Source of the DNA: a virus
Taxonomy: Duplodnaviria > Caudoviricetes
IMG/VR virus record: IMGVR_UViG_3300005937_000003
Span: 17,131 to 81,130 of that record
Reading direction: 5' to 3' (one strand)
Length of the DNA: 64,000 bases
Below are positions 7,531 to 39,000 of the stretch, in pieces. The stretch's first letter is position 1; every line of letters begins with the position of its first letter. Both the position numbers and the translations under genes were made by a program. The notes under the pieces were generated by a model. That model had not been told where the DNA came from, made no database searches, and was given only the letters and a program-made list of their open reading frames with translations.

Positions 7531-7929
7531 TTATGCCATGTCCTCAGTTCGACGGATGTACTGGACCAGTGGCCCGTAGACCACCCAGCCAGGCCCCTCG
7601 TAGAGCGGTCCGACGCCGCCTGCGCGGATGATCCCGACGTACTCGGCCATCTGGTCGATGTCGCGCTGGTCGTACAGGCCGAAGATCTCGACCACGCGGT
7701 CGTCGGGGTCGCGCACCAGCACCTCGCCGTCGTCGCCGTAGGCGATGTGGGCGATCTCGATGCCGTTGCCGCGCTCCTCGTTGCCCACGCTGTACCAGCC
7801 CATGACGTTGTCCACGAAGCGCACGCCCAGGATCGGCTGCGGGTCGGTGTCCAGCCCGTCTGGGAAGTGCACCTGGGCGGTCGCCCCGCCGCGCACCAGT
7901 TCCTCGATCCGCTCGCGCTCGCCCGCCAT
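7531..7929 (-). CDS. Hypothetical acidic protein (candidate immunity protein)
   Basis: ATG 7929 overlaps the MuF stop (TGATG); MAGERERIEELVRGG..., 132 aa. Confidence 0.65.
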   Translation of the reverse strand: MAGERERIEELVRGGATAQVHFPDGLDTDPQPILGVRFVDNVMGWYSVGNEERGNGIEIAHIAYGDDGEVLVRDPDDRVVEIFGLYDQRDIDQMAEYVGIIRAGGVGPLYEGPGWVVYGPLVQYIRRTEDMA

Positions 7930-10900
7930 CAGTGCATGATCACCACGATGTCCTCGACGCTCTTGCCTCGGATCTGCGAGATGCCGCGATCCTTCAGCTT
8001 CTTGATGATGCGCGTGCGCTCGGCGGCCGACCCCGCGTTGATCTGCTTGACGTATTCGAGCATCGGGAAGCCGTTCTTGACCACCAGTTCGTTCAGGTAG
8101 TTCGTCTCGGCCTGCTTCCACTGCTGGACGGTGGACAGGCGGTCGCGCTTGTTCGACGGGTCGGAGCGGCCGAAGTTGTCCGACTTGTACTGGATGTTGT
8201 CGGTGCGCAGCATCAGGTCGGTGTCGAAGATGAAGTGCGGCTTGCCCGCGTAGTCGGCGCGGAAGAAGTGGCTGGGGTTCTGGATGCGCAGGAACAGGTA
8301 GCTCGCGCCGCCCGTGCCCATGTCGGTCGCGGACGAGTCGCCATCGGCCTTGCGATACACCCCGTTGCGCACGCGCTCCTCGGTGTTCATGAGTTGCCCG
8401 TTGGTGCCCAGGATGATGTCGAGGAAGCCCTCGGCGCCGTGCTTGCTGCGGTGACTCAGGCCCCAGCCTGGCATGGCCTTGTCGATGTCGGCCTTGGTCA
8501 CGTCGAAGCGCGTGAAGAAGCCGTGGCCGCCCGCCTCGCTGGCGTGCAGGGCGCCCTCGGGGCGGTACATCGGGTCAAACTGCGGCTCAGGCTTGTAGCT
8601 CGGCAGCTTGGTCACGTCGCTGATGTTCAGCTTGGTGTTCCAGTAGGCGTGGTGGACGGCGATCTGGTCGCGTACGGGCATGCCTGGCGCGATCTTGTTG
8701 GTGACCTGGCTGCGGTAGGTCGGGTCGTCCTCCAGCTTGCTCGCGTGCGCCTGGTGGTGCAGGTACAGCAGTTCGATGTCGTCCCGCGTGGCCACGCCAT
8801 CGTCCAGGCCCAGTGCCTCGATCTTGTCGATGGCGGACTGCAGCATGGCGGGTGAGCCGTCGAAGTTCTCCACGAGGAACTCCAGGCGGCCCTGCTTCGA
8901 GTAGCGGTTGCCGCCCATGTTGTGGGGGATGTACTTGGCGGTGATGCCTGGCGCGATCTGGATGGTGTGCTCGCCCGCGCCCTCGTGGCCGTAGGTCGAG
9001 CCACGCGCCATCGTGCCGTCCCACACCAGGCGGTGCCCGACGGGCTTGACGTTCAGGCCGTACGGCTGCTCGGTCTTGGCCTGGAACTTGTTGGGCGGCG
9101 GCGGGGCGGGCGCGGCCGTCGCGCTCGGCGGCGGTGGCGGGATGTACTCCCCGAAGGTGGCCTGGTGGACGGCGGTCGAGGTGGTCCAGTAGTGGGTGAT
9201 CTGGGCGTTGATCTTGTCCAGCGGCTGGGTGGCAAGCTCGTGCACGCTCCAGCCCGAGATCGTTTCGAGGATGGCCGTGTAGTGCGCGGCCTTGCCCGCG
9301 TCGAGGTTGCCCGCCTCGATCTGCTTGGCCAGGTTGACAATCGGCATCATCTTGGGTGTCTCGATGATCTGGTTGTAATACTGGGTGCCTGGCTTCATGT
9401 GCGCCGCGACGTGCTTGATGCCCGGGATGAGGGCGTTCCAGAGCGGGTCGGCGGGCGCGTAGCTGGCGGCGGTGGACGAGGCGGCGTAGTTGCTGATGCC
9501 CTCCAGCTTGGCCAGTAGCTTGGGTTCGGCGTGCGCTCGCACCTTGCCGCGCAGCAGCAGCGCCTGGCCGTCGCCCGTCTTGTCCACCGTGTAGGCCAGC
9601 ATCGAGCCGTCCTCGATGTCGGTGCCCGCCACGCGGACGCTATGGCCAGCCCAGCCTGTACGGGCGACAGTGTCCACCAACGGCTGGGCGATGGGCGTGA
9701 ACTGGTTGGCGGTGACGGTCGCCGCAGGCGGCGCGGGTGGCGGCTTGAGCGCCTGCGTCGCGCTCGGCAGGGGCTTGCCCGCCTTGGTGTCGGCGTCGTC
9801 GTACAGCTTCTTGACGTCGGCGCGGATGTTGTGTTTGCGCTCGATAAGCTGGTCGTAGATAACCTCGGGCGTGGCCACGAAGCCCACGCGGGCGGCGTGC
9901 TCGGCGTACGGCCTGACGGCCTCCTTGAAGACGGCGTCGTCCAACGCCTCGATCTTGTCCACCAGGGCGTCCACGGCCTTGCGGTCGAGGTCGAATCTGC
10001 CCTGGATGTAGCCCTCGAACAGCGGCCTGTAGACCACCCCGTCGGGATTCGGCTCGTATGTCCAGTGCAGCTTGTCCTTGCCCAGGAACTTGAACGCCTG
10101 GCCCTTGTCGATGGCCAGCACGTTGCCCTGCGGGTCGAGCAGCAGCGCGCCGTTGTTGGAGTCGTGCTGGCTGATCAGCCAGTCGATGATCATGTGCTCC
10201 TGAATCTGGGCACGCTGCTGGGGCGTCAGGCTCGCCAGGGTGTTCATCTTGACCGTGCCCGAGATCTGGTGGAACTGCTGCAGCGAGCCGTCCTGGCCGC
10301 CGACGCGGGTCACGTGCATCTCGGGCGTGGCGTAGCCGAGTAGCTCCATGACGTTGTAGCCCGCCTTCTCGGCATTGGCCGCGTTGGGGTCGGGCTTGAA
10401 CATCCACGTGCTGCCGTCGGGCGCCTCGTAGATGGTCTTGGCGTGGCCGCCGCCCACGTTCTGCGGCTTGACCTTGAACTGGCCGACGTTCGGCACGGGC
10501 GGCGGTGGCTTGAGGCCAGTCGGCATCTGCGGCTGCTGCTGCGTCGGGGCTGGCTGAGTGGTGACCACGGGCACGCTCGGCGCCGCTGCGGGTGTGACGC
10601 CTGGCGGCGTGACCAGGGTGACCTTGCCTGGCGACTTGGTGAACTTGTTGGGCACGCCTGGGATGGGGCTGACGGGCTTCAGCGCGACCACGTTCTTGCC
10701 CGCGTTGTAGGAGGTGACGGTGGCCGTCACGAGCGTGCCCTGGTAGTCGGTGGTGACCACCGCGCCCTTGTCGGTGACCTTCAGCGTAGGGGCCGTGGGC
10801 GGTGGTGGCGGCTGCGCGGCGGGCGGCGCCACAGGTGGTGGTGGGGTGTAGGGCGTGGGCGCCTTGAAGTCGCTGAGCACGTGCAGCGGCACGCTGAATT

Positions 10901-13900
10901 GCGCCCCGTCGGGTAGCTCGATCTTCCAGCTTGTGGCGCTCGTCGGCTCGATCAGCTTGATCGTTTCGATGCCACTGTAGAGCGCCGTCCCGCCTGGCTC
11001 GGGACCAGCGCTGGGGGTCAGTGTGGCGTGGGCGGGCGGCGTCACGGCCATCGGCGCGCCAGGCGGCAGCAGTTCGCTCTTGTAGAAGTACAACTGGTTG
11101 CCCGCGTGCGACCCCGTCTTCATCTCGACGGTCATCTCGTCTTGCGCGCTCTTGCCGACAGGGTCGGTCAGCAGGACGGCCTCGTGGCCGTGCCACGACT
11201 TGCCTGGCATGTTGACCACCACCGTGTCGCCCACCTTGAGGTGGCTGATGCTGCCTGGCCGTGGCGCGGTTGGCCCTGGCACGTTGGTCTGCACGGGCGG
11301 GGTGGTGACGGTCGGCGCGGGCGCAGCACCTGGCGGCTGGATGGCGTCCACGTACTTGGGGTTCTTGGTGAAGGTGGCCTTCTTGGCGCCCGTGATCGGC
11401 ACGTCGGGCTTGATGGTCACCACCTGCTTGCCCGGGTTCCACGAGGTGACGGTGCCCGTGACCAGATTGCCCTGGTACATCGTGCTGACCTTGGTGCCCT
11501 TCTGGGTGACGTCGATGACCGTCCCAGGCGGCGGTTGCAGCGGTACGGGCGGTGGCGTGGGCGCATGGACCACGCTCGCGCCTGGTGCCTTGAGCGTGCT
11601 CAGCGGCCAGAAGTCGGTCGTGCCTGCGGCAGGCCCCGTCTGGTAGACCACCGTGAGCGGCGTGGTCGGTGAGGCGCCAGGCTTGGACTCTTTGATAATG
11701 ACCGTCTGGCCGTGCATCGGGTCGCCAGGCACGTCGAGCACGGCCGTCGTGCCTTGAATCGGCGTCACCTGCTGCGGCGCGGGGCCTGGGGCGGTCGTCA
11801 ACGCTAGCTCGGACAGCTTGAAGAAGCCCTCGTAGCCTGCCTCGGCGCCCGTCTTGAACATGACCTTGACGGTGGTGTCAGGTCCAGCACCTGGCTTGTC
11901 CTGCTCGATGGTGACCGTCTCGCCATCGAGCGGGTGGCCTGGCTTGGCGATCTGCGCGACGGTGCCCTTGACCGCTTGCGGCTGGCCTGGCGGCGCGGGC
12001 GCGGCCTTGGGCGGCGGCATGTAGCCCGCGTGCGTCGCGCCTGGCAGGCCGATCTCGTCCAGATAGGCGTGCACCTTGCTGCCATCGGCCAGCAGGATGT
12101 CCACGTAGGCGCTGCCCGTCTTGCCCAGGACGTCGGCCTGGAGCACGCCTGTAGCGCCCGCATCAGGCCCCTTGAGGATGACCACCTCCTCGCCTGCGGT
12201 GAGTTGGTGCAGCGGCGTCTGGGTGTGCTGCACGGTGCCTGGCGGCACGTCGAGATACTTCTTGGCGACGAAGTAGGCGTCGTTATCGTTCTGGGCGTCG
12301 GCCAGCGTCTTGTAGACGGGGATCTGGCTGTCGGGGTCGAGCGTCCAGGCGGGCGTCTCGCCCAGGTACACATCCTGGCCGTACAGCGGGAAGCTCGTGT
12401 CGGTGATCTGCACCTTGTCGCCAGGCGCCAGGTCGTCCAGCTTGGCGAGGCCACGTGTGCCTGCGCTGGCGGCGACCTGGGCGTTGGGGTCGATGAACAG
12501 GTTCTTGGCCAGCGCGTCATGCCCGCCGCTCGGCAACAGGATCGGCACAGGCTCATTCGGCCCGTAGTTGTTCGGGTCGTCGGCCAGGACGTACTTCTCG
12601 CCGTGCAGGATGCTGCCTGGCTTGTAGACCTGCACCTCGTCGCCAAACTTCAGGTGGTCGATGCCGCCCGGGGTGGGCACAGGTGGCCCGACGGGCTGCG
12701 GCGCGGCAGCCAGCGGCTTGATCTGGCCGACGTTGACCTCGGCCGTCGAGTAGTAGTGCAGGCTGCCGTCCGCGAGTTGGATCTGGTAGATGCCCATTGC
12801 CGAGATCTGGACCACCTTGCCCTGCTGGCCGTGCACGCTCGGGTACAGCGGCGTGTCGATCTGGACGTTGTCACCGATCTTGATCGGGGTGGTCGCGGGC
12901 GGCGGCACGTAGCTCGGCGTGGGCGGTGGTGCGGGCGGCGCAAGCGTGGGATTGGTGGCCGAGACGTCCCACTTCTGGTAGCTCGGCGCGAACGCGTGCG
13001 AGCCGTCCATCAACTGCACCGTCCAGTCGTCAATGATCTTGGCGACGGGCGCCCCGTGGTGCGGGTTGCCTGGCTTGTCGATGAACCCGATTGGCTGCGG
13101 CGTGGTCGGCGCAGGCGCAGGCGCGACCTGAGCGGGCGCCTTGAAGTTGGTCAGTTCGCTGGGTGGGAAGTCGAGCGTCATGCCGCTCGGGAACTTGACC
13201 TCGATCAGGCCGTTGGGCTTGACGGCCACGATCTCCAGGGTGTCGATGCCTGGCGTCTTGAGCACCAGTTCGGCCGTGCCACCGACCTGCGGCCCGACCA
13301 CGGGCACGCTCGTGGCGGTGGGCGTGATCACCTCCAGCTTGAACTGGCTGGTGGCGGGCAGGTCGAGCGCCAGCGCCTGGCCCTGAATGTTGACGCCGAT
13401 GGTGGCCGTGCCGTCGGGCGCGATCTTGGTGATGGTGCCCACCTGGCCATCGAGCACGGGCTGCTCGGGCGTGTGGAACTTGACGTTGATGCCCGCCACG
13501 AGCGTCCCGGGCGGGTGCGACGGCGGCGTGGCTTCGAGGTTCTGGGGCACGACGTTGTTCTCGCTGCCGTCTTCCCACTTGACGTGCACCGTGCTCGCGG
13601 TGGCGATGCCCATGACCGTGCCGACCTTGCCCTTGTGCTGGCCGACCTTGGCCCAGATGACCTGCCCGACGCCGATGCCGCCCAGGCTGGGCAGGGGCGC
13701 CGACTGTAGCTGGACGGCCTCGATGAACTCCTTCCACTGGCTGCCATCGGGGAACAGCACCTCGACGGCCAGGGCGCCCTGCATGGTGGTGTGCCCCGTC
13801 ACGGTGCCTTCCAGGCCCTTCTCGGGGCCATCGGTGACGGTGACCTTGTCGCCCACCTTGTAGACGGGCGGCGCCACAGCGTTGGCGCTCAGGTGCTCCA

Positions 13901-15794
13901 TCGCGATCAGCAGGTCGTCGGCCATGTTGCGCAGGTGCAGGCCCTTGGCGTGCTTCCAGGCGCCTGGCTTCATGATCTGCACGACCGACTCGGCCAGCAT
14001 CTCGTGCCAGTCGTCGGCGGCGTAGACGCTCGGCAGGCCCAGCCCGATGCCGTCGTTCAGGTCGTTGAAGACCTGCTCCCACTGGTTGGCCTGGCCGTGC
14101 GTCATCAGCCGCTCCAGGGTGTGCGCAAGCTCGTGCACGATCAGCCACTTCTCGGTGACCGTGCCCGTCTGGGGATCGGCGGCCACGTACATCGGCTGCC
14201 CGCCCGCGCCCGTCTGGCTGGCGTTCTGCTCGATGAACTTGAGCACCTGGGCGCGCTCGGCCAGGTTGATGCGGAAGTAGCTGCCGATGGCCTGGGCGTA
14301 CACCTGCTGGTTGGTCGAGAGGCCTGGCGCGAACTCCAGGCGGACCTCCTGGCCGAACTTGTAGTGGTGCCCCGTCTTGGGGTCCACGAAGGGCGTGCCG
14401 ATGGCGATGCCGACCTGCTCGTAGGCGTCGAGCGCCTCGCTCACGGCCTGCAGCGCGTCGGCGGTGCCCTGGTCGTGCGGCACCTGGGGATCGACGTCCA
14501 CGTTCACGCCGCGCTGCGCCAGGGCGTGCAGGTGCAGGTCGATCTGCTCCTGGGGCGTCGGGCCGATCTGGGTCAGCGGCGCCGCCACGGTGGGCGCGCC
14601 CGTGTAGGGCTGGATCTTGGACGGCGCCCGCCAGACCTTGATCGAAGCCATGCCCTGGCCAGGGTCGATGATCAGCGTCAGGACACCCTTGCTGGCGTGC
14701 TCGCCGTTGACGGTGGCGATGACCTGCTGACCCTTGACGTCGATCAGCACCTTCTGGCCCTTGGCGTAGCCGCCCATCAGCGGGCCTGTGCCGAAGGCCT
14801 GGATGGCGCCCTCGACGCTGGAGATCTCGATGTCGAGCAGCGGCTTCAGGTCGTTCTGGTAGTAGGCCTCCAGATGCGGCTGCGAGTGCGGGTCGGCCAG
14901 CCAGCTATCAAGCTCGGCCAGCACGTCGTCCAGCTTCTTGTGGACGGGGATGGCCGTGCAGAAGCAGTGCGGGTGCGGCTTGAGCGGTTCGGTGCCCTTG
15001 GGGAAGAAGCCGATGGCGGCGTAGTCGTCGCAGATGTCCTTCTCGTGGCCCAGGCCCTCCGCGATGTGCCAGCGGATGCCCAGGTAGCTCGGCGTGGCCG
15101 CGTGCGACGAGATGGTGCCCTCGTGGAAGGCGTTCTGCATCTCGGTCCTGGCCACGCGCATGGCGGGCATGCTGGTGTCCTTGGGCACGCGCAGGCGCTT
15201 GGCCGTGGCCTCCTTGTAGGGCACGTTGGTGCCTGGCTGCAGGTACTGCTCGATCTGGCGAGCGACCTGCACGGGCGGCTGGCCCGCGATGATGGCCGTC
15301 TGGACCACGCTCTGGGTCGCCTGGCGCCACTGCTGGTTGGACTTCCAGATGCGGTCGCTGAGCTTGATGCCGTCCTTGCCCGTGCGCGTGATGAAGGCGC
15401 CCGCCGCACGCTGGTTGATGCCCCTGACGTGGGCGTCGATGGCCTCGGGGCCGAAGACCGACCCGTAGGCGTCGGACACCTTGGCCTTGAGCACGCTGTC
15501 GGCCGAGTCATGGAAGCTGGCGTAGATGCCCGCGTGCATCGCGTCGATCACGCGCTGGTCGAGCGTGGTCGCGTAGTCACCGATGATGGTCTGCAGGTTG
15601 GACAGGTTCCAGGCGGTGCTGGGCGCCGTGGGCGGCGCGGCCGCGACCCGCGACCCCACGCTCGTGGCGGCCTGCTGGTAGGCGTTCTTGACCTGCGCCT
15701 GGGTCAGCCCCGACTTCTGCGCCCACGCCTCGCGGGCGTCCACCAGCGACTGGCGGTAGATCTGACTGTTACTCGGCTGGGGGTTGCTCGGCAT
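7929..15794 (-). CDS. Giant MuF (SPP1 gp7-like head morphogenesis) polyvalent protein: MuF, metallopeptidase, SH3/KOW-like array, kinase-like and ART-like domains
   Basis: RVARTEM...ICDD...PHPHCFC MuF motifs; HELAH at 14121-14135 with SVYAADDWHEMLAE; about 16 GDxV..G..G.V modules; WMFKP...DWLISQHD...IDKG kinase-like; C-terminal LSHRS...GGASYLFLR...NELVV. Confidence 0.85.
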   Translation of the reverse strand: MPSNPQPSNSQIYRQSLVDAREAWAQKSGLTQAQVKNAYQQAATSVGSRVAAAPPTAPSTAWNLSNLQTIIGDYATTLDQRVIDAMHAGIYASFHDSADSVLKAKVSDAYGSVFGPEAIDAHVRGINQRAAGAFITRTGKDGIKLSDRIWKSNQQWRQATQSVVQTAIIAGQPPVQVARQIEQYLQPGTNVPYKEATAKRLRVPKDTSMPAMRVARTEMQNAFHEGTISSHAATPSYLGIRWHIAEGLGHEKDICDDYAAIGFFPKGTEPLKPHPHCFCTAIPVHKKLDDVLAELDSWLADPHSQPHLEAYYQNDLKPLLDIEISSVEGAIQAFGTGPLMGGYAKGQKVLIDVKGQQVIATVNGEHASKGVLTLIIDPGQGMASIKVWRAPSKIQPYTGAPTVAAPLTQIGPTPQEQIDLHLHALAQRGVNVDVDPQVPHDQGTADALQAVSEALDAYEQVGIAIGTPFVDPKTGHHYKFGQEVRLEFAPGLSTNQQVYAQAIGSYFRINLAERAQVLKFIEQNASQTGAGGQPMYVAADPQTGTVTEKWLIVHELAHTLERLMTHGQANQWEQVFNDLNDGIGLGLPSVYAADDWHEMLAESVVQIMKPGAWKHAKGLHLRNMADDLLIAMEHLSANAVAPPVYKVGDKVTVTDGPEKGLEGTVTGHTTMQGALAVEVLFPDGSQWKEFIEAVQLQSAPLPSLGGIGVGQVIWAKVGQHKGKVGTVMGIATASTVHVKWEDGSENNVVPQNLEATPPSHPPGTLVAGINVKFHTPEQPVLDGQVGTITKIAPDGTATIGVNIQGQALALDLPATSQFKLEVITPTATSVPVVGPQVGGTAELVLKTPGIDTLEIVAVKPNGLIEVKFPSGMTLDFPPSELTNFKAPAQVAPAPAPTTPQPIGFIDKPGNPHHGAPVAKIIDDWTVQLMDGSHAFAPSYQKWDVSATNPTLAPPAPPPTPSYVPPPATTPIKIGDNVQIDTPLYPSVHGQQGKVVQISAMGIYQIQLADGSLHYYSTAEVNVGQIKPLAAAPQPVGPPVPTPGGIDHLKFGDEVQVYKPGSILHGEKYVLADDPNNYGPNEPVPILLPSGGHDALAKNLFIDPNAQVAASAGTRGLAKLDDLAPGDKVQITDTSFPLYGQDVYLGETPAWTLDPDSQIPVYKTLADAQNDNDAYFVAKKYLDVPPGTVQHTQTPLHQLTAGEEVVILKGPDAGATGVLQADVLGKTGSAYVDILLADGSKVHAYLDEIGLPGATHAGYMPPPKAAPAPPGQPQAVKGTVAQIAKPGHPLDGETVTIEQDKPGAGPDTTVKVMFKTGAEAGYEGFFKLSELALTTAPGPAPQQVTPIQGTTAVLDVPGDPMHGQTVIIKESKPGASPTTPLTVVYQTGPAAGTTDFWPLSTLKAPGASVVHAPTPPPVPLQPPPGTVIDVTQKGTKVSTMYQGNLVTGTVTSWNPGKQVVTIKPDVPITGAKKATFTKNPKYVDAIQPPGAAPAPTVTTPPVQTNVPGPTAPRPGSISHLKVGDTVVVNMPGKSWHGHEAVLLTDPVGKSAQDEMTVEMKTGSHAGNQLYFYKSELLPPGAPMAVTPPAHATLTPSAGPEPGGTALYSGIETIKLIEPTSATSWKIELPDGAQFSVPLHVLSDFKAPTPYTPPPPVAPPAAQPPPPPTAPTLKVTDKGAVVTTDYQGTLVTATVTSYNAGKNVVALKPVSPIPGVPNKFTKSPGKVTLVTPPGVTPAAAPSVPVVTTQPAPTQQQPQMPTGLKPPPPVPNVGQFKVKPQNVGGGHAKTIYEAPDGSTWMFKPDPNAANAEKAGYNVMELLGYATPEMHVTRVGGQDGSLQQFHQISGTVKMNTLASLTPQQRAQIQEHMIIDWLISQHDSNNGALLLDPQGNVLAIDKGQAFKFLGKDKLHWTYEPNPDGVVYRPLFEGYIQGRFDLDRKAVDALVDKIEALDDAVFKEAVRPYAEHAARVGFVATPEVIYDQLIERKHNIRADVKKLYDDADTKAGKPLPSATQALKPPPAPPAATVTANQFTPIAQPLVDTVARTGWAGHSVRVAGTDIEDGSMLAYTVDKTGDGQALLLRGKVRAHAEPKLLAKLEGISNYAASSTAASYAPADPLWNALIPGIKHVAAHMKPGTQYYNQIIETPKMMPIVNLAKQIEAGNLDAGKAAHYTAILETISGWSVHELATQPLDKINAQITHYWTTSTAVHQATFGEYIPPPPPSATAAPAPPPPNKFQAKTEQPYGLNVKPVGHRLVWDGTMARGSTYGHEGAGEHTIQIAPGITAKYIPHNMGGNRYSKQGRLEFLVENFDGSPAMLQSAIDKIEALGLDDGVATRDDIELLYLHHQAHASKLEDDPTYRSQVTNKIAPGMPVRDQIAVHHAYWNTKLNISDVTKLPSYKPEPQFDPMYRPEGALHASEAGGHGFFTRFDVTKADIDKAMPGWGLSHRSKHGAEGFLDIILGTNGQLMNTEERVRNGVYRKADGDSSATDMGTGGASYLFLRIQNPSHFFRADYAGKPHFIFDTDLMLRTDNIQYKSDNFGRSDPSNKRDRLSTVQQWKQAETNYLNELVVKNGFPMLEYVKQINAGSAAERTRIIKKLKDRGISQIRGKSVEDIVVIMH

Positions 15795-16491
15795 CGGGTG
15801 GATGCGTGCCCGACGTGAAGGTCTGGCTGTTGGGCAAGCCCGTCCAGTGCGCCACGGCGGTGCCTGCGGCCGTCGCGGGCACCAGCGCCTGGCGCTCGCG
15901 CTCGGCCTGAGCGCGCTGCTCGGCCTCGAACTGCTGACGCTCCTGGGCGGTCAGGTTGCTCTTGGCCGTGCGCACGTCGGCGGGCGCGCTGGTCCACGGC
16001 GGCATCGGTAGCTGGCTGGCGATGACGTTGGCCAGGTGGTCGGCGGTGATCTCGATCTGGCGCCTGAAGGCGCGGATGAACAGCGTGTGCGCCTGGTCGG
16101 CCAGGGCGCCCTTCAGGTCGTGCTCGACCATCTGCAGGTTGGCATCCAGCAGCACGTGCGATAGCTCGTGCGCCATGTGCAGGCGGGCGTCCTGGGGATC
16201 GGAGTCGAAGATCTCGTTGTCGAAGCGGAAGCTGGCGAAGACCCGCCCGTCGATGATGTTGACCTGGGCGTGGGCGTCCGTGTCTGGCCCTTCGTGCCAC
16301 AGCCGCAGCGTCCAATGCTGCAACAGCATCTGGTCGGCGCACGTGCGCAGCCAGGCGCCCAGCCACTCGCGCTGCTGGCCCGTGTAGTAGCTCTCGGCAT
16401 CGTTCAGCGGCCCCGTCGTGGCGCGGTTGTCGAGGTACTCGGTGGGCTTGGCCTGGCCAGGCCGCATCTCGTCGTAACACGTGATCGGCAC
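15769..16491 (-). CDS. HExxH metallopeptidase-like protein
   Basis: LHMAHELSHVLL motif; GTG start 6 nt after a TACACT -10 box. Confidence 0.65.
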   Translation of the reverse strand: MPITCYDEMRPGQAKPTEYLDNRATTGPLNDAESYYTGQQREWLGAWLRTCADQMLLQHWTLRLWHEGPDTDAHAQVNIIDGRVFASFRFDNEIFDSDPQDARLHMAHELSHVLLDANLQMVEHDLKGALADQAHTLFIRAFRRQIEITADHLANVIASQLPMPPWTSAPADVRTAKSNLTAQERQQFEAEQRAQAERERQALVPATAAGTAVAHWTGLPNSQTFTSGTHPPDAEQPPAE

Positions 16492-16691
16492 GCGTGCAGT
16501 GTATGCTCACCAGTGACGCCGCGCTGCCACCCACGGGGGACTCTGCTGCTGGACCACGTGGTGTGCTGACACCCACACGCTCGGTGGTCGGTGCGTCGCT
16601 TGCCCCGCATGGGGCGTCAGGACACGCGACCTGGCGCCCCGGGGCGTCAATCTCAGCGTAAGTTGATGATGACCCGTTATAGTCGGCGGCC

Positions 16692-16838
16692 ATGCCCCGC
16701 CAGGCCCAGGCGGTGGTCGAATACGGGTTGCTGATTGCGACCATCGCGTTGCTGGTGTTGTTGGGGGCCAACGCATTCGGCACTGCTCTTTCCGCGTGGT
16801 TCGATGCGCTACTGCTGCGCATCCTCGCGACGGTTTAG
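16692..16838 (+). CDS. Flp-family (type IVb/Tad) pilin-like protein, 48 aa
   Basis: MPRQAQAVVEYGLLIATIALLVLLGANAFGTALSAWFDALLLRILATV; EY at +5/+6 and a hydrophobic helix; TATAGT 8 nt upstream; not in the track. Confidence 0.8.
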   Translation: MPRQAQAVVEYGLLIATIALLVLLGANAFGTALSAWFDALLLRILATV

Positions 16839-16847
16839 CCGACATGC

Positions 16848-16874
16848 AAAAGCCTCACCCTTTTGGGGTGAGGC
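16848..16874 (-). terminator. Intrinsic terminator after tRNA-Cys; also closes the convergent pilin gene
   Basis: GCCTCACCC/GGGTGAGGC stem plus TTTT on the minus strand. Confidence 0.8.
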
Positions 16875-16879
16875 CGAGA

Positions 16880-16953
16880 TGGACGGCGCGACGGGAGTCG
16901 AACCCGTTTAGTCAGTTTTGCAGACTGATCCCTGGCCGTTCGGGCACGCGCTG
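16880..16953 (-). tRNA. tRNA-Cys (GCA), CCA encoded
   Basis: 74 nt; anticodon arm TCAGT-CTGCAAA-ACTGA; T arm ACGGG-TTCGACT-CCCGT; U73 discriminator and CCA; one acceptor mismatch (A2.C71). Confidence 0.92.
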
Positions 16954-16958
16954 AGGGT

Positions 16959-17153
16959 CTACTTCTTGGGCTTGTGGCAGGCGCACTGGCAGCGGAAGTT
17001 GCGCCCCACGCGGCGGTCCTCCCAGCCTGTGCATTCGGCGTGTAGGTCGCGCAGACGGCGGTGGCGGGCCACGCCAGGCTCGGAGTCAACGATCTCGACC
17101 ACCTGGCCACGCTCGCACAGAATGCTGATGCGCAGCTTGCTGTAGCGGGCCAT
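16959..17153 (-). CDS. Small Cys/His-rich basic protein
   Basis: ATG overlaps the Nudix stop; ends CQCACHKPKK. Confidence 0.55.
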   Translation of the reverse strand: MARYSKLRISILCERGQVVEIVDSEPGVARHRRLRDLHAECTGWEDRRVGRNFRCQCACHKPKK

Positions 17154-17686
17154 CAGTAGCTCTGCGCCTTGATCCAGCGGTTGACGCGGTTGGCCACCGC
17201 GTGGGTGACGGCGTTGCAACCGTGCGGCAGGCGGTCGGCGTCCCACCAGGCCAGTGGGTACTTCTCGTCGCCGTTGGTCACGGGGATCTCGCCCGCCCAG
17301 TCGGTGATCAGGAAGGGGTGGAAGGTGCGCCCGTTGGCGTCTTGGAAGCTGCCCAGGTCGTGCACCTCGGCCGCGAACAGCCCCAGTTCCTCGTACAGTT
17401 CGCGCAGCGCGGCGTGCTTGCCGTCCTCGCCCTTGTCCACGCGGCCTGAGCCGAAGCACCACTGGTTGATGGGCGGCCACGGTGGCAGGCGGAACTCCAT
17501 CAGCACGCGGCCCGTCTCGGGATCGAGCAACACGTAGATGGCGACCTCGGTCTTATTCTCGTAGTGGTCGGCGGCCGCCGACATGCCCTTGTACTTCAGG
17601 ACACCGTCGTCGGGCTTGCTCGCGCCGTTGGCGATCTCGGACAGGCCAGGCAGACTGGCGAAGTCGGAGGCGGTTGGCTGGGTCAT
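17153..17686 (-). CDS. Nudix hydrolase
   Basis: Full Nudix box GRVDKGEDGKHAALRELYEELGL. Confidence 0.9.
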   Translation of the reverse strand: MTQPTASDFASLPGLSEIANGASKPDDGVLKYKGMSAAADHYENKTEVAIYVLLDPETGRVLMEFRLPPWPPINQWCFGSGRVDKGEDGKHAALRELYEELGLFAAEVHDLGSFQDANGRTFHPFLITDWAGEIPVTNGDEKYPLAWWDADRLPHGCNAVTHAVANRVNRWIKAQSY

Positions 17687-17853
17687 GACTGGACATCCTT
17701 GATGGCGAAGCCCTCGGGCCAGCGCTGGTGGCCAGGGCAGTTGGTGGCGGTGCAATTCCAGGCGGCGCACTTGATGCACACGGTGCTGGCAGTCGAGGCC
17801 TGCTCGCGAAGCGGCAGGTGGCCGCACAGGTGGCGGACCTCGGTGGTGTTCAT
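17683..17853 (-). CDS. Small Cys-rich protein, leaderless
   Basis: ATG 7 nt after the GATAAT of promoter A; CIKC/CTATNC. Confidence 0.55.
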   Translation of the reverse strand: MNTTEVRHLCGHLPLREQASTASTVCIKCAAWNCTATNCPGHQRWPEGFAIKDVQS

Positions 17854-17942: not shown

Positions 17943-18317
17943 TCAATTGCTGCGCTCGGCTAGCCGCTCTAGCTCGGCCTTGAAGTGCGCCAGTTCCTCG
18001 TCGGAGGCGTTTTCAAGGTGGTGCAGGACCAGTTCGGTCCTAGCCTCGGGCAGCGCTCGCAGGATCTCGTCCAGCTTGAGGTGGACGGCCGCGTTATCCC
18101 TGAGTTGCGTGTTCTGGATGATGAACACCAGCAGGAAGGTCAGCACGGTCGTGCCCGTGTTGATCACCAGTTGCCAGGTGTCCGAGAAGCCGAACAGCGG
18201 CCCGCTGACGGCCCACACCAGGCACGCCAAGACGCTCAGGATGAAGGCGAGCGGATGGCCCGTCCAGACGCCGATCAGCGTCGCGAAGCGGGCGAAGCGC
18301 TCGCCCCAGGCGCTCAC
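17943..18317 (-). CDS. Low-affinity iron permease family (Fet4-like) protein
   Basis: FSDTWQLVINTGTTVLTFLLVFIIQNTQxRDxxAVHLKLDEILRA signature. Confidence 0.88.
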   Translation of the reverse strand: MSAWGERFARFATLIGVWTGHPLAFILSVLACLVWAVSGPLFGFSDTWQLVINTGTTVLTFLLVFIIQNTQLRDNAAVHLKLDEILRALPEARTELVLHHLENASDEELAHFKAELERLAERSN

Positions 18318-18318
18318 C

Positions 18319-18486
18319 TCACAGCAGGCGTGCTAGGGCAAGCCCGCCGAACATGGCGCACAGCTTGGGGTCCATCTGGTTGGTCAGCCACAGCACCACC
18401 GCCGCGATCAGCACGACGATGGCGATCAGGGTGCCGATGGCGCCGCCATATGGCGCGGTCCACAGCACACGTCGTTCTACAGCCAC
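18319..18486 (-). CDS. Small membrane protein
   Basis: GTG after GGAGGTGGGAG; two hydrophobic segments. Confidence 0.6.
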   Translation of the reverse strand: MAVERRVLWTAPYGGAIGTLIAIVVLIAAVVLWLTNQMDPKLCAMFGGLALARLL

Positions 18487-18502
18487 GTACTCCCACCTCC
18501 CT

Positions 18503-20053
18503 TCACGCCGCGAACGGCGGGACACCCGATTGTTCCTCCTCGCCCTCCTCGGTCGTCACGTCCTGGCCGCCCAGCGGTAGCCCGCCGCCCTGCACGCGCT
18601 CCAGCCAGGCCAGGCTACTCAGCACGCGACGGCGCTCGTCCTCGGTGCCCTCGCTGAGCCAGGGCAGGATGGTCGGCACGAAGTCGCGCAGGAACTCGTT
18701 GGCGCCGTCCAGGCTCACCAGGCCCGCCTGGGTGCCCACCTGAAACGCCTGGAACAGCGTCAGGATGGTCTGCGCCACCGCCTGCTCGTCCTTGGCCGCG
18801 ATCTCGGGCCACGACGGCTCGACCTCGTAGGTCAGCAGCGCGGGCATGTCGAAGCCAGGCGCCTTGGCAGCCATCGCCAGGAACATCTCGTGCGTCTCGA
18901 CGTACGGGTCGGTGGTCATCAGCCGCTTACGCTCGATGGTCTTGACGAACGGTCCCATCTGGCTGTCCACGCTCGCCTTGCTGGAGGCGACGGCCGTGCC
19001 CAGCACGAACTCGGGGATCTGCGCGCTCTGGACGATGCAGTAGAACAGGTACTCCAGCAGGATGCCCACGCCCGCCGTGCCAGGCTCGGCGGTGATGTAG
19101 TTGGCGTCCTCACCCTCGGTCAGCAGGAAGATCTCGTGCCCCTGGAAGTTGACGGGCTGACCTGGCTTCCAGCCCGCGAAGTTGTCGGCCAGGAAGCGGT
19201 TGACGTCCTTGAGGGTGAACTTCACTTTCGGCTTGGCGAACAGGCGGATGCCCTGATTGCCGACCATCATGGTGTCGTGGTACGCCCGCAGCAGCGGCTC
19301 CAGCGGTTCGAGGTCGCTCACACCGAATAGCTGGTTCTCCTCGGGTTCGTTCTTGAAGTGCACGACGGGGATGAAGCCCCAAGGGTTCGGCACCTCGTCG
19401 CCTGGATAGCGCTGGCGGATGTCGGCGGGGGCGCGCTCGTCGGCCTTGAGTTGGTACGTCGCGTCGGTCAGCGTCTCGGTGATCACGTAGCTCGGCTGGG
19501 TGTTCGAGTCGGGCCTGTTGGTCGGGTACACGGGGTGGGTGATGATGAGCGCGTCCCACTCGCCCGTGATGGGGTCGAGGACGGGCGTGCACCACTCGGG
19601 ATGCTCCAGGCGGATGTCGAAGCGCTTCTGCTTGCTGAAGCGGTCGTCCACGTAGTCCAGGCGCAGGAAGACGTCGCCGTCGCGCAGCGTATTGCGGTTG
19701 ACGGTCAGGAAGGTCGAGACGAACTTCTGGTCGAACTCGTTCAGCGCCTCGTCGGCCTCGGGCACCTCGGCCTTGCTCTTGAAGTGCGGCACGCCCACGT
19801 AGCCCGCCGTGAAGTTGATGATCGGCCTGGCGAAGTGCGCGCCCAGCTTGTACTGCGGGATCTGGTTGCGGTACAGCTTGCGCGCCCGCCCGTAGTCCAC
19901 CCGTGAGGTGTCGAAGTTGGACTCGCGGTTGGGCCACCAGCCCGTGCCCGTGATCGAGGCGCCGTCCTGGCGCAGCGGGGCGTACGGATCGGTTTCCCCG
20001 TAGGCGATGCGATTCATCGCTCTGGCCAGCGCTCGTGTCAACGGGTTGGGCAT
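18503..20053 (-). CDS. Portal protein (SPP1 gp6-like)
   Basis: 516 aa directly after TerL; GDVFLRL, WGFIPVVHFKNEP and FGVSDLEPL motifs. Confidence 0.88.
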   Translation of the reverse strand: MPNPLTRALARAMNRIAYGETDPYAPLRQDGASITGTGWWPNRESNFDTSRVDYGRARKLYRNQIPQYKLGAHFARPIINFTAGYVGVPHFKSKAEVPEADEALNEFDQKFVSTFLTVNRNTLRDGDVFLRLDYVDDRFSKQKRFDIRLEHPEWCTPVLDPITGEWDALIITHPVYPTNRPDSNTQPSYVITETLTDATYQLKADERAPADIRQRYPGDEVPNPWGFIPVVHFKNEPEENQLFGVSDLEPLEPLLRAYHDTMMVGNQGIRLFAKPKVKFTLKDVNRFLADNFAGWKPGQPVNFQGHEIFLLTEGEDANYITAEPGTAGVGILLEYLFYCIVQSAQIPEFVLGTAVASSKASVDSQMGPFVKTIERKRLMTTDPYVETHEMFLAMAAKAPGFDMPALLTYEVEPSWPEIAAKDEQAVAQTILTLFQAFQVGTQAGLVSLDGANEFLRDFVPTILPWLSEGTEDERRRVLSSLAWLERVQGGGLPLGGQDVTTEEGEEEQSGVPPFAA

Positions 20054-20074
20054 GGGCGGCTCCTCGGCGCCAGT

Positions 20075-21478
20075 CTACGCGAAGCTGCCCGATACGACCG
20101 CCTCGATGGCCTCACGGCTGCCTGGCGATACCATTGCCCGCAGCGGCCACGATGCCAGCGCGAGTGCAGTCACGGTGTCGTCGTGTCCGCCATCTGGGTG
20201 GTCCACGCGGCTCGACTGGCCATGCTTGACGCGGCGCAGGGCGCGCAATTCGTCGCGCAGCCTGGTGAAGCCCGCAGGTAGCTCGAACTTGCGGTTCTGC
20301 AGCAGCACCTGCAGGTTGGAGAGCAGCGCGTTGCGCGACGTCTGCGAGAAGACGTACGGCTCGGCGCCGACGATCTGCTCGGCCACGCCCTTCTCGGTCG
20401 TCGCGTCGATCAACACGCGGGCGTTGTTGAACTCGGCGCGCAGGGTGTTGACGTCGTCCACCACGCTGCCCTCGCCCGTGTAGGGCTTGCCCCTGTAGTA
20501 CAGCCAGCGGGCGATGCGCACGGGCCAGTAGGTGACGTTGAGCACGACGATGGCGGTGTAGTCCTGCACCTGAGCCAGGTCCACGCCGATGACGTAACGG
20601 TGGCCGTTGCCCGCCTCTAGCTCGGGCGGGTAGTCCTCATCGAACAGGTCGGCCAGCAGCGACCAGGCGAAGACCTGCTCGTCGTCGTCCACGAACTGGG
20701 CCAGGTATTCCACCAGCCAGACGTACTCGGGCACCTCCAGCTTGATGCGCTCGATCTCCTCACGCGGCACGGCCAGGTTGTCGAAGACCGTCGCGTGGAT
20801 CGTGCGGTAGTAGCCCGACGGCTCGCTGTAGATGCGCCCGCTGCCGTCCACCAGCACGCGGTTGTCGCCGTTGGCCAGGTTGTGCAGCGTCTGGAAGTAG
20901 TTCTGGCCGTTGGGTGTCGATTCGAGCTTGATGGCCCCGCCTCGGTCCAGCACCATCGCTCGGATGACCTCGTTGTAGACCTTGTCCTTGATGAAGGCGG
21001 CCTCGGTGACGCACACGCCGTTGGCGCCCTTGCCGCGCAGGTACACCCCGTCGCGAGCCGTTGACCTGGCGTGTAGCTCAGAACCCGTCACCAGCTTCAC
21101 GCTCGGGAAGGGGCTGCGCTTGATCGGCCCGTCGAGCAGCGCCTCCATCATGCCGTTAGGGTGCTGGGCGGCCTGCTCGATCTCGTTGAAGTACAGGCTC
21201 GCCTGGTCGAGGCTCGGGCCTGTGACGTACCACGTGTGGTTGGCGTGGGTGGCCAGCGAGTGGACGGCGTCCACCGTCGTCGTCAGGGTCTTGCCCGACC
21301 GCCGTCCCGCCACCTTGGTCGAGATGGTGCCGCCGATGTTGACCGCGTCCACCTGCCACGGCGACGTCCGCAGATCCTTGCCGAAGAAGACCTTGGCGAA
21401 CTCGCACTTGTCGTGGCGGCAGCGCTGGACCACCTGGGCCAGGCGGGCCATCTGCTCGTGGCGCAGCAGCACGGCCAT
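20075..21478 (-). CDS. terL: Terminase large subunit
   Basis: Walker A VAGRRSGKT; ESTPNG; nuclease GVDLAQVQDYT and HDDTVTALALA. Confidence 0.93.
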   Translation of the reverse strand: MAVLLRHEQMARLAQVVQRCRHDKCEFAKVFFGKDLRTSPWQVDAVNIGGTISTKVAGRRSGKTLTTTVDAVHSLATHANHTWYVTGPSLDQASLYFNEIEQAAQHPNGMMEALLDGPIKRSPFPSVKLVTGSELHARSTARDGVYLRGKGANGVCVTEAAFIKDKVYNEVIRAMVLDRGGAIKLESTPNGQNYFQTLHNLANGDNRVLVDGSGRIYSEPSGYYRTIHATVFDNLAVPREEIERIKLEVPEYVWLVEYLAQFVDDDEQVFAWSLLADLFDEDYPPELEAGNGHRYVIGVDLAQVQDYTAIVVLNVTYWPVRIARWLYYRGKPYTGEGSVVDDVNTLRAEFNNARVLIDATTEKGVAEQIVGAEPYVFSQTSRNALLSNLQVLLQNRKFELPAGFTRLRDELRALRRVKHGQSSRVDHPDGGHDDTVTALALASWPLRAMVSPGSREAIEAVVSGSFA

Positions 21479-21570
21479 CAGTGGCGCGTCAGGATGAACA
21501 GGACCGTGCCCAGCATCATGCCGAAGACGAACAACGCCAGGACGGCGTTGATGGCGCGGTCACGGCTCAC
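21478..21570 (-). CDS. 30-aa membrane peptide
   Basis: GTG SRDRAINAVLALFVFGMMLGTVLFILTRH; overlaps both neighbours (GTGA, TGATG). Confidence 0.55.
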   Translation of the reverse strand: MSRDRAINAVLALFVFGMMLGTVLFILTRH

Positions 21571-36568: not shown

Positions 36569-37014
36569 CCCACCCTGGCGTGGCCGTACACGAGCGAGCG
36601 GTAGACGGGCACGCGCCTGGCGTGGGCGTTCGGCCTGGTCGAGGCGATGGTGCGCTCGGTGCGCTTGATGATCTTGCGGCGCACGCCCTCCATCCACAGC
36701 CCGCCGATGACGTTCGGGTGCGCCTCGGCAGGCAGCGGCGGCAGCACCTCCCACAGGTCGTCGGTGGTGATCTCCTCGTGCTCGCGGGCAAGCTGGTACA
36801 GCAGCGTGAAGGCGACCGTGCGCCAGTTCTCGGGCGTGTTGTCCCAGGCCTGCTGGATGCCCTCGTCGCGGCGCTCGTGGCCATTCTTGGCGGGCAGCTT
36901 GACGTGTGGCGGCGGCTTGGTCACCTCGACCACCTGGCGGTCTTCTGGCCACAGGTCGGGGAACAGCGGCTCGGCCATCCAGCGCGCCGTCGTGCCAAGG
37001 GGTTGGTCGGCCAT
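36565..37014 (-). CDS. Conserved phage hypothetical protein
   Basis: GAGGAGG RBS; EITTDDLW...STRPNAHARRVPVYRS. Confidence 0.65.
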   Translation of the reverse strand: MADQPLGTTARWMAEPLFPDLWPEDRQVVEVTKPPPHVKLPAKNGHERRDEGIQQAWDNTPENWRTVAFTLLYQLAREHEEITTDDLWEVLPPLPAEAHPNVIGGLWMEGVRRKIIKRTERTIASTRPNAHARRVPVYRSLVYGHARVG

Positions 37015-37024
37015 CAGATCCTCC

Positions 37025-37774
37025 TCACCCCGCGACTCCCTGGCTGCGCTCATACTCGACGCCCTTGCGGAAGCAGTCTATGCACAGGACGCTGCTGAAG
37101 CGACGGGTGGAGATCGTGCGCAACTTGGCGATGGTCCACGTCTGGCCAGGCTTGCCGTCTTTCGGGGGGAAGCTGACGGCTGCCAGGGGCTGGCCGCACT
37201 CCATACACTTGGGAGGTCTGGCGGTCGGTTGGTCTGGCGCCTGTGCGGGAGGCGTCTGCGGGGCCGCTGTGCCGCCAGGCAGCGCGGCTGGCCTGGGAGC
37301 CGTCCCGTTGGCCTTGGACGCGCCTGCGCGCCCTGTGCGGCCGTTCTGGGTGGCCTGTGGCGGCACGCCCTCGTGCCAGGTGGCGTGGCTGACCATCAGG
37401 TACAGGCCGACGCCCAGCAGCGAGGCGCACTTCTTCATCGCGTCGGTGGCCGCACCCTTGTGGTCGTCGGCCAGGTTGGTCGGCGGCCCGCCGTTCTTGG
37501 GGCGCTTGATCTTCTGGCCGCCGAACTGTTGACGGGTGATCCACTGGCCGCCGACCCAGGCGCGAAGCTCGCCCAGCGCGACCACCTCGTCCGCCTCGGC
37601 GTCCACGTGGAACTGGACCACGCTGTACATCCACTGCCCGACGCCCAGCACGTGGTTCAGGCGCTTGGCGACCTGCTCGCCCGAGAGGAACGGGCCGAAC
37701 ACCCCGTCAGCGGTGTAGTAGCCCTCGAATGGGGCGGCCAGGTCGTCGTACAGCGCCTTCTCATCCGCGTCCAC
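37025..37774 (-). CDS. Rad52/Rad22-family single-strand annealing protein (Sak-like)
   Basis: VAKRLNHVLGVGQW...KGAATDAMKKCASLLGVGLYL; C-terminal Zn finger CMEC/CIDC. Confidence 0.85.
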   Translation of the reverse strand: MDADEKALYDDLAAPFEGYYTADGVFGPFLSGEQVAKRLNHVLGVGQWMYSVVQFHVDAEADEVVALGELRAWVGGQWITRQQFGGQKIKRPKNGGPPTNLADDHKGAATDAMKKCASLLGVGLYLMVSHATWHEGVPPQATQNGRTGRAGASKANGTAPRPAALPGGTAAPQTPPAQAPDQPTARPPKCMECGQPLAAVSFPPKDGKPGQTWTIAKLRTISTRRFSSVLCIDCFRKGVEYERSQGVAG

Positions 37775-38006
37775 GCGCCACCTCCTGCTCGCTGGCGACG
37801 GTGGCCAGCATCTCGGCCACGACCTTCTGCACGATCAGGCTGTCCAGCGCCTGGTCCTGCGGGTCCAAGATGGCCCACTTCGAGCGGTGGCGGTCCACGT
37901 CGCGGTGCTGCTCCTGCATCGCGGTGAACCAGGCGTGCCACAGCGCCCGCGCCGCATCCTCGGTGCGCGACCAGGCAATCAGCGCGTCCATCTCAAGCGT
38001 CGGCAT
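37761..38006 (-). CDS. Hypothetical protein
   Basis: Track ORF; GGAGG RBS. Confidence 0.55.
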   Translation of the reverse strand: MPTLEMDALIAWSRTEDAARALWHAWFTAMQEQHRDVDRHRSKWAILDPQDQALDSLIVQKVVAEMLATVASEQEVARGRG

Positions 38007-38565
38007 CGCTGACCTCCACGCCCTCGACGCCGCTGTCGGCCACCTGGCGCAGCTTCTCGATCATGACGTCCATCTCGTCGGCGGTCGGCTTCTCACCGTT
38101 GCCGCCCGTGGCGGGCACGCTCTTGCGACGGCGGCCTGGCCCCGCCTGGATGTCCCTGTACTCGGGCGTGGGCTGCTCGTCCCAGCCAGGGTGCTTGGCG
38201 TCCATCTCGTTCAGGTCGCCCAGGTCCATCGGCTCAGGCCCAGGCTCGGTGGGCACCTCCTCGCGGGCGACGATGCCACGGTCCAGTGCCACCTGGCCGA
38301 TGCTGGCCAGCCACTTCAGGCGCTCGTACTCGGCCTCGGGCACGCCCACCAGGCCCGTCTGCCGCTCGAACTCAGCGCGTGCGCGCTCGCCCGCGACGCT
38401 CAGGTCGTCGTCGTACGCGTGCACCTCGACCTGACGCACCCCGCTCGCCAGGTTGGTGATCTTGACGCCAGGCTGCTCGCGGCGCGCACGAGCGGCCAGC
38501 GTCCTCTCGACCGTGCGCATCAGGCGCTCGGCCTTCCCCGTCAGGGGCTGCTTCTCGTCAGTCAT
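37993..38565 (-). CDS. Hypothetical protein
   Basis: Track ORF, 190 aa. Confidence 0.6.
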   Translation of the reverse strand: MTDEKQPLTGKAERLMRTVERTLAARARREQPGVKITNLASGVRQVEVHAYDDDLSVAGERARAEFERQTGLVGVPEAEYERLKWLASIGQVALDRGIVAREEVPTEPGPEPMDLGDLNEMDAKHPGWDEQPTPEYRDIQAGPGRRRKSVPATGGNGEKPTADEMDVMIEKLRQVADSGVEGVEVSDADA

Positions 38566-38644
38566 CTCGCTGTTATGCTCCTACGGCTGCACTGGGTGGG
38601 AACGTGCCGCGCTTGGTGCCCCCGCCCAGTGTGGTCTTGCCACT

Positions 38645-38971
38645 TCAGGCCGTGGCGGCCGCCAGTTCGCGATGGCGCAGGCGCTCCTCCGCAAGCGTGC
38701 GGTCGCGGCTGCCGACGCTCTTGTGGCGTGGTTCGATGGTGCCCGCAGGCACCCCCAATAGCCGCTCGCACCTGGCCCACAGGCCAGGCTGGGGCGGACG
38801 GTACAGCGGATTGGTCGGGTTCAGCCGCATGCGGTACAGGTAGTTGCGACTGATGCCCAGTTGCTCGGGCAGCCACTCGGTCTGCCTGCCCTGCTGCATC
38901 AAAATCTCCTCCAGTCGGCGCCCTTGAGGCGACCAATCGGCTGGCGGCGGGGAAACTCGTGATCGTGGCAT
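38645..38971 (-). CDS. HTH (Cro/XRE-like) transcriptional regulator, leaderless
   Basis: RLEEILMQQGRQTEWLPEQLGISRNYLYRM; TACTAT 7 nt before the ATG. Confidence 0.7.
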   Translation of the reverse strand: MPRSRVSPPPADWSPQGRRLEEILMQQGRQTEWLPEQLGISRNYLYRMRLNPTNPLYRPPQPGLWARCERLLGVPAGTIEPRHKSVGSRDRTLAEERLRHRELAAATA

Positions 38972-38980
38972 ACGCCGAAT

Positions 38981-39000
38981 AGTAACCGATCAGGGTGACA
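38981..39000. promoter_or_regulatory. Dyad operator overlapping the promoter of the HTH gene
   Basis: AGTAACC-GATCAG-GGTGACA. Confidence 0.65.

Follow-up and report, generated by a model that had tools for sequence, protein, structure and literature searches.

A putative Flp-family pilin gene in a mobile, apparently leaderless cassette of an uncultured phage with a probable Chloroflexota host

The window analysed here, a stretch of 64,000 nucleotides, is the last 64 kb of an 81,130-bp IMG/VR record that is rated complete by CheckV. The G+C content of the window is 66-70%, and nearly every credible gene in it is carried by the minus strand; the long antisense ORFs are the usual artefacts of high-GC DNA. 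In order along the minus strand, the region of interest comprises the large terminase (20075-21559), the portal (18503-20074), TM62, a small membrane protein of 68 aa encoded just after the portal gene (18319-18525), a low-affinity iron-permease-like membrane protein (17943-18317; PF04120, E 9e-41; PHROG 3485, 'moron'), a NUDIX hydrolase (17153-17827), a tRNA-Cys (GCA) gene (16880-16953) that is the only Rfam match in the region, a 240-aa protein (15769-16491), and a 2621-aa MuF-type giant (7929-15794). Between the tRNA-Cys gene, which is convergent with it and bounds its cassette, and the 240-aa gene sits a plus-strand ORF of 48 aa (16692-16838, stop codon included) with the features of an Flp/Fap-family pilin. 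Neither a tyrosine or serine recombinase nor an integrase was found in the phage record. An A24 peptidase, a T2SSE ATPase, TadE, and a second Flp were likewise searched for in the whole 81-kb record and none was found, which bears out the earlier statement, made from the letters of the window, that no other Tad genes accompany this ORF. Searches of 50,697 cultured phage records, by megablast with the region and by tblastn with the 48-aa protein, returned no matches, although the low-complexity filter may hide hydrophobic peptides of this kind. The portal matches only Firmicutes phage portals among cultured phages, at 33-36% identity, and gives no clue to the host. A portal-based search identified sister phages with a portal identity of 79-89%. 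The 240-aa neighbour has no relatives on viral contigs by the pattern method.

Two features of the surroundings are of side interest. The iron-permease-like gene (17943-18317, minus strand), located between TM62 and the NUDIX gene, is also present in the relative L010 (859-1227) and absent in L006-L009, and with the NUDIX and tRNA-Cys genes it forms an island of morons that separates the portal from the MuF giant. The intergenic region that precedes the 240-aa gene (16492-16640 of the window) is kept in the relatives L006, L009, and L010 in an alignment of the syntenic regions. Here TACACT (16498-16503, minus strand) is part of an invariant AGCATACACTG and lies 6 nt ahead of the GTG start; it is probably another leaderless promoter, facing away from that of the Flp gene.

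The sequence-only reading had described a 48-aa ORF with the Flp pattern and a transmembrane helix, and this was confirmed at 16692-16838 on the plus strand, opposite to the flanking genes. Its codon-position GC (0.63/0.43/0.82) resembles that of the real genes of the phage genome (0.64/0.46/0.9), and none of the other five frames across the stretch fits a coding-type profile. An in-frame TAG (16680-16682), four codons upstream of the start, limits the leader to 5 residues. Four residues separate Ala5 from Glu-Tyr, which places this alanine at -1 of the X4-Glu-Tyr Flp motif (MPRQA, followed by QAVVEY), and the features of a class III signal peptide are present, namely an Arg in the leader, Ala at -1, Glu at +5, and Tyr at +6. 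The leader codons would therefore span 16692-16706 (plus strand), with cleavage predicted after Ala5 from the register of the motif against relatives with Gly or Ala at -1, and the predicted mature pilin (16707-16835, plus strand) would have 43 aa, including Gln1, Glu5, Tyr6, a hydrophobic helix, and an FG...WF motif, in keeping with the modal mature length of the family (42-45 aa).

Family membership is supported by several lines of evidence. In an HMM search against Flp_Fap (PF04964), which had been suggested as a check, the ORF did match (E 4.7e-6), but the score of 26.7 bits falls under the curated gathering cut-off of 32.2 bits and the match covers model positions 11-41 only, because the protein has almost no leader and the corresponding part of the model is left unmatched. 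PHROGs and NCBIfam returned no family for it. A profile built from the phage copies retrieves 3706 family matches among 1.84 billion representatives. It also matches two Tad pilins of solved structure, 8u1k and 8u2b (both at about 1e-5), in such a way that Glu5 and Tyr6 are in register, and the mature part aligns to the helix of 8u1k. Across seven phage copies, the invariant columns are Q+1, V, E+5, Y+6, G, FG, and WF, a conservation that would be unexpected in a simple membrane helix. In every pair of homologues compared, pS exceeds pN, with omega values of about 0.1-0.5, and the gene is under purifying selection. Given how short the ORF is, its sub-threshold Pfam score, and a leader truncated by an upstream stop, it might be no functional gene at all, being instead an ORF that arose by chance or the decaying remnant of an flp captured from the host. 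This is highly improbable in view of the coding-type codon-position GC and of intact homologues in at least six related phage contigs, which keep the conserved motifs, the excess of pS over pN, and a promoter box at fixed spacing. We are confident that the ORF is a real Flp-family gene.

The promoter box is TATAGT (16678-16683, plus strand), a -10 box of the leaderless type located 8 nt before the ATG. It is the sole occurrence of TATA[AG]T in the 64-kb window, both strands counted, and with TANNNT found at a frequency of 0.1% per position, the chance of meeting one 6-9 nt before a given start is about 0.4%. In all four cassettes for which DNA is available (the window, L008, L009, and L091), TATA(G/T)T lies exactly 8 nt before an ATG or GTG, whereas the flanks further upstream are unrelated, and the promoter box therefore moves with the Flp gene. 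The layout of a -10 box, 6-9 nt, and a start codon recurs at other genes of the phage, four of which have a full TTGACA-N17-TATATT promoter. No -35 hexamer was found for the Flp gene, and a sigma-70 consensus scan detected no two-box promoter nearby. Downstream, a 10-bp GC-rich hairpin (16852-16874; -23 kcal/mol, z -3.5) is shared by the convergent Flp and tRNA-Cys genes; its U-tract is on the tRNA (minus) side only, so that it would terminate minus-strand transcription in the canonical way and offer the plus strand a hairpin only. The single 'terminator' called by a consensus scan lay inside the Flp ORF and was disregarded.

With its own -10 box and hairpin, and with a presence and position that vary among relatives, the Flp gene would qualify as an autonomous moron. 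Here the sequence-only reading has stood the comparison well, as the leaderless TATAGT box, the end at the tRNA terminator, and the independent status of the unit were all recovered, with the spacing kept in four cassettes and the qualification on the side of the U-tract. Phage morons as described previously (PMC3594210) are similarly independent units that have a promoter and a hairpin to themselves, occur in some related phages and not in others, and are opposed to the flanking late genes. The differences are that the Flp terminator is shared with a tRNA gene and has no U-tract on the Flp side, and that expression from a prophage cannot apply here if the phage is virulent.

Comparison with related phages points to a gene that is mobile and accessory within one phage lineage. 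In L008 and L009, Flp is co-directional with the late genes and sits between TM62 and the MuF gene, with a leader of 3 residues ending in Ala in the former and of 4 residues ending in Gly in the latter. At the syntenic site of L006, L007, and L010, the TM62 gene is present and Flp is absent. The inverted layout next to the 240-aa gene is common to the window and the contig of P0002; this is the closest protein (69% identity), with a 13-residue leader ending in Gly, on a short contig. In L091 and the 82.7-kb contig of P0080, Flp is found just upstream of a cro-like HTH gene, and the early genes of both are 74-89% identical to those at 36586-38899 of the window. The cassette thus occupies three positions, in both orientations, within one lineage of phages of about 80 kb. 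Outside this lineage, short-leader relatives occur in the phage-like contigs L087 and L122, along with replication genes (DNA polymerase A/UDG, PDDEXK, and AAA_24), and in temperate phages, where a tail fibre and a serine integrase are encoded as well (L003). A tree of the mature parts is poorly resolved, only 2 of its 154 branches being well supported; it places the lineage copies in a weakly supported group, rich in short leaders, apart from the Tad-locus pilins, and these copies may have diverged toward another role. The tree was also considered for distinguishing one capture from several, for which its resolution was too poor and no conclusion was drawn. As a separate observation, the cro-like HTH gene of L091 is 89% identical to window positions 38714-38899 and has a dyad-bearing promoter, corresponding to about 38972-39000 of the window, right in front of which the Flp cassette (388-501) ends, so that in L091 the pilin gene abuts the counterpart of the putative master-switch promoter described in the sequence-only reading.

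Cellular relatives were sought by a pattern scan covering one genome per prokaryotic species. Of 13 genomic relatives, the best ten belong to Chloroflexota MAGs (51-68% identity) and are followed by three from Actinomycetes MAGs; the top match is the Tad-locus pilin of a Chloroflexota MAG (locus L072), 68% identical over residues 5-44. In three Chloroflexota genomes, a short A24 (TadV-type) peptidase frame of 171-226 aa lies within a few hundred bases after flp, and TadE-like genes are also found near flp in Chloroflexota loci; these are bona fide Tad loci. The five Chloroflexota genomes searched (G001-G005) have 5-11 flp genes each, and these are of two kinds. The Tad-locus pilins have acidic leaders of 13-20 residues ending in Gly and a Thr-rich C-terminus, whereas the orphan flp genes are highly conserved, with short basic leaders mostly ending in Ala. 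Members of this orphan class are scattered away from Tad loci and usually have leaders of 8-12 residues (L101, L104, L106, L109, L110, L114, L115, L117, L118, and L121). Chromosomal flp genes also include L078, which lies beside clpP, clpX, and rmlD and combines a Tad-locus-like mature sequence with Ala at -1. Judged by pilin similarity alone, the host is probably a member of the Chloroflexota. The portal was not found in 401 Chloroflexota genomes, as expected for a phage that does not integrate. Tad pili are reported to be the sole pili of Chloroflexales and are candidates for a role in motility (PMC7332563). An flp gene convergent with a tRNA gene in the host chromosome (L077) was considered as a trace of co-capture of flp and tRNA and rejected, since the tRNA is a different one (tRNA-Arg) and the setting is ordinary chromosome.

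Set against cellular major pilins of the Flp family (PF04964; Caulobacter PilA, 8u1k; the 'Flp family type IVb pilin', 8u2b/8ucr; and Chloroflexota L072-L081), the phage protein is alike in mature length (43 aa versus 45 aa in the solved pilins), in the Gln/Ala+1...Glu+5-Tyr+6 pattern, in the hydrophobic N-terminal helix and FG...WF tail, and in the small residue at -1. It differs in that no tad genes surround it, in its basic leader of 5 residues versus acidic ones of 13-20 residues, in its score under the Pfam cut-off, and in the lack of the Thr-rich, exposed C-terminal end of the host pilins, a lack common to the phage copies of the lineage.

The alanine at the predicted cleavage site deserves particular attention, as it had been taken from the sequence as the mark of a poorly processed decoy. 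This claim did not survive comparison with the family. In the best 150 of the 3706 representatives, position -1 is occupied by Gly 88 times, by Ala 49 times, and by Ser 6 times. Leaders no longer than 10 residues are seen in 36 of them; within the same set, leaders with Ala at -1 tend toward a basic character and those with Gly toward an acidic one. Ala is likewise found at this position in chromosomal Chloroflexota flp genes (L078 and the orphan class) and in the sister phage L008. Long leaders of the Ala type are known from P0028 and P0044, on contigs too short to classify. Ala at -1 is therefore a normal state of this pilin group and a norm of the lineage rather than a defect. The argument for a decoy or poison pilin, in which Ala at -1 and the stub leader would lead to poor or no cleavage, jam the prepilin peptidase or the assembly platform, and turn host Tad pili off, can still draw on the contrast between the short basic leader and the acidic ones of Chloroflexota Tad-locus pilins, on a phage without a peptidase of its own, and on the fact that inhibition of assembly has been considered as an alternative for truncated phage PilA proteins (PMC12952977). 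Apart from the frequency of Ala in the family and in conserved chromosomal genes, it is countered by the alternation of Gly (L009, L091, and P0002) and Ala (the window and L008) cassettes within one lineage; as these are interchangeable, the -1 residue does not look like a functional switch. Prepilin peptidases are, moreover, reported to cleave after either Gly or Ala (PMC3244431). On balance, we regard a decoy as unlikely.

We know of no characterised Flp prepilin with a leader as short as 3-5 residues, and cleavage of the Flp prepilin is therefore a step that we infer.

Another alternative, which we consider improbable, is that the gene encodes a small membrane protein independent of pili, for example a holin/antiholin-like or injection-related module acting with TM62, for which an Flp-like helix would have been co-opted. 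Suggestive in this respect is that a TM62-family gene immediately precedes Flp in two phage groups that are not related to each other (L008/L009 and L002-L004), and the TM62 family was not found in the five Chloroflexota genomes. In L003 and L087, Flp is found among genes for small membrane proteins after the tail genes, which is where lysis genes are usually found. However, every relative has TM62 but only some have Flp, and the two genes are far apart here and in L091. Beside none of the Flp copies was a lysis enzyme identified; Pfam and PHROGs searches of the genes around Flp in L002-L004 and L087 returned a tail fibre, ParB, and a serine integrase, and no lysin or holin. Furthermore, the invariant Q+1/E+5/Y+6 and the Gly or Ala at -1 serve the pilin pathway and not a generic membrane helix. 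A functional link between TM62 and Flp is possible on the strength of their gene order.

The TM62 family itself consists of membrane proteins of 50-68 aa with a conserved tail resembling G-x-A-L-A-R-L-L and belongs to no Pfam or PHROG family. Its gene directly follows the portal in every relative (L006, 4100-4282; L007, 5014-5202; L008, 3519-3707; L009, 7559-7750; L010, 672-857) and directly precedes Flp in the unrelated temperate phages (L002, 4637-4789; L003, 4739-4897; L004, 3933-4088). Near Flp in other phages (L087, 4634-6261; L002, 5015-5470), a 372-aa membrane-anchored Pro/Thr-rich protein is encoded together with small one-TM proteins, in which the TM helix is followed by a conserved E-L-x-x-(E/D)-R-D-x-W-R motif; these clustered genes for membrane proteins, located where the tail module ends, are possibly a lysis region.

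The reading we prefer, with moderate confidence, is that the gene encodes a functional phage-borne Flp (type IVc/Tad) pilin, which would be processed by, and act through, the Tad system of the host. According to this proposal, a leaderless mRNA would be transcribed from a unit made up of the -10 box, the 8-nt spacer, the start codon, the ORF, and the hairpin, and the peptide would insert so that its basic MPRQ stub stays on the inner side of the host membrane. Cleavage after Ala5 by the TadV peptidase of the host would follow, and the 43-aa mature pilin would enter the host Tad assembly pathway, where it could co-polymerise with or replace the host pilin. The absence of a Thr-rich exposed end of the host type would change the pilus surface, and the outcome could be that competing phages which depend on the pilus find their receptor altered or blocked (superinfection exclusion). 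Judged by the analogous P-FimU and P-PilA, such exclusion is a likely candidate for the selected benefit, accounting for about one part in three of the weight within the host-Tad reading. Since the phage has no integrase, there would be no lysogen to protect, and exclusion would have to act during lytic infection. As a more speculative extension, which we put forward tentatively, a phage-type 'mini-Flp' clade (-10 box, 8 nt, leaderless start, leader of 3-7 residues, and pilin of about 43 aa) may circulate among several lineages of Chloroflexota phages; its members would have the shortest known bacterial class III signal peptides, still cut by the host TadV, and would re-surface or cap Tad pili to exclude rivals in lytic infection.

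To our knowledge, a role of phage pilus subunits in phage-versus-phage competition has been shown only recently, and so far for type IVa pili of Pseudomonas only. P-FimU and P-PilA, which are phage-encoded, become part of type IVa pili and exclude pilus-binding phages, and PilA-like genes are carried by virulent phages too (Sztanko et al., Cell Rep 2026, PMC12952977). As in the present case, these are phage-borne homologues of a host pilus subunit without the accompanying machinery, some carriers being virulent and some versions shortened. They differ in being type IVa components of Pseudomonas and Xylella with globular domains, whereas the protein described here is a 43-aa Tad Flp pilin known from sequence, with a probable Chloroflexota host. 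Expression from a prophage is also not supported here, in the light of the missing recombinase and of a portal not found in the 401 Chloroflexota genomes. Flp pilin genes have further been noted as accessory cargo in the Vibrio harveyi prophages phi345 and phiGANI1709, where they are only listed as a putative virulence factor (PMC12482185). These too are Flp-family pilin genes within tailed phage genomes, but the vibriophages are temperate, whereas here there is no integrase, the host phylum is another one, and the gene is part of a mobile leaderless cassette with a stub leader.

Phage-borne pilins are thus an already known kind, and Flp genes have already been noted in vibrio prophages; what is new is the probable Chloroflexota setting, the leaders of 3-7 residues, and the evidence, from comparison of relatives, that a cassette carrying its promoter relocates within one lineage. 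The theme of phage-borne pilus subunits thereby comes to include Tad/Flp pili as well as phages of a phylum that has been little studied, and the Flp gene serves as a host clue for an uncultured 81-kb phage. From a genomic point of view, it offers an example of a compact, mobile, apparently leaderless cassette whose promoter travels with the gene. The comparison also corrects an attractive but wrong inference, as Ala at the cleavage site is a norm of the lineage. Should leaders of 3-5 residues indeed be processed, they would define how short a leader TadV-type peptidases can still recognise.

A minor observation concerns cellular proteins in which Flp-type N-termini are fused to long C-terminal extensions (L082-L084 in Actinomycetes MAGs; L105 and L119 in Chloroflexota MAGs). 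The extension is a Cys-rich domain of about 90 aa, conserved in the three MAGs, in the Actinomycetes proteins, and a Pro/Thr-rich stalk of 100-200 aa in those of the Chloroflexota.
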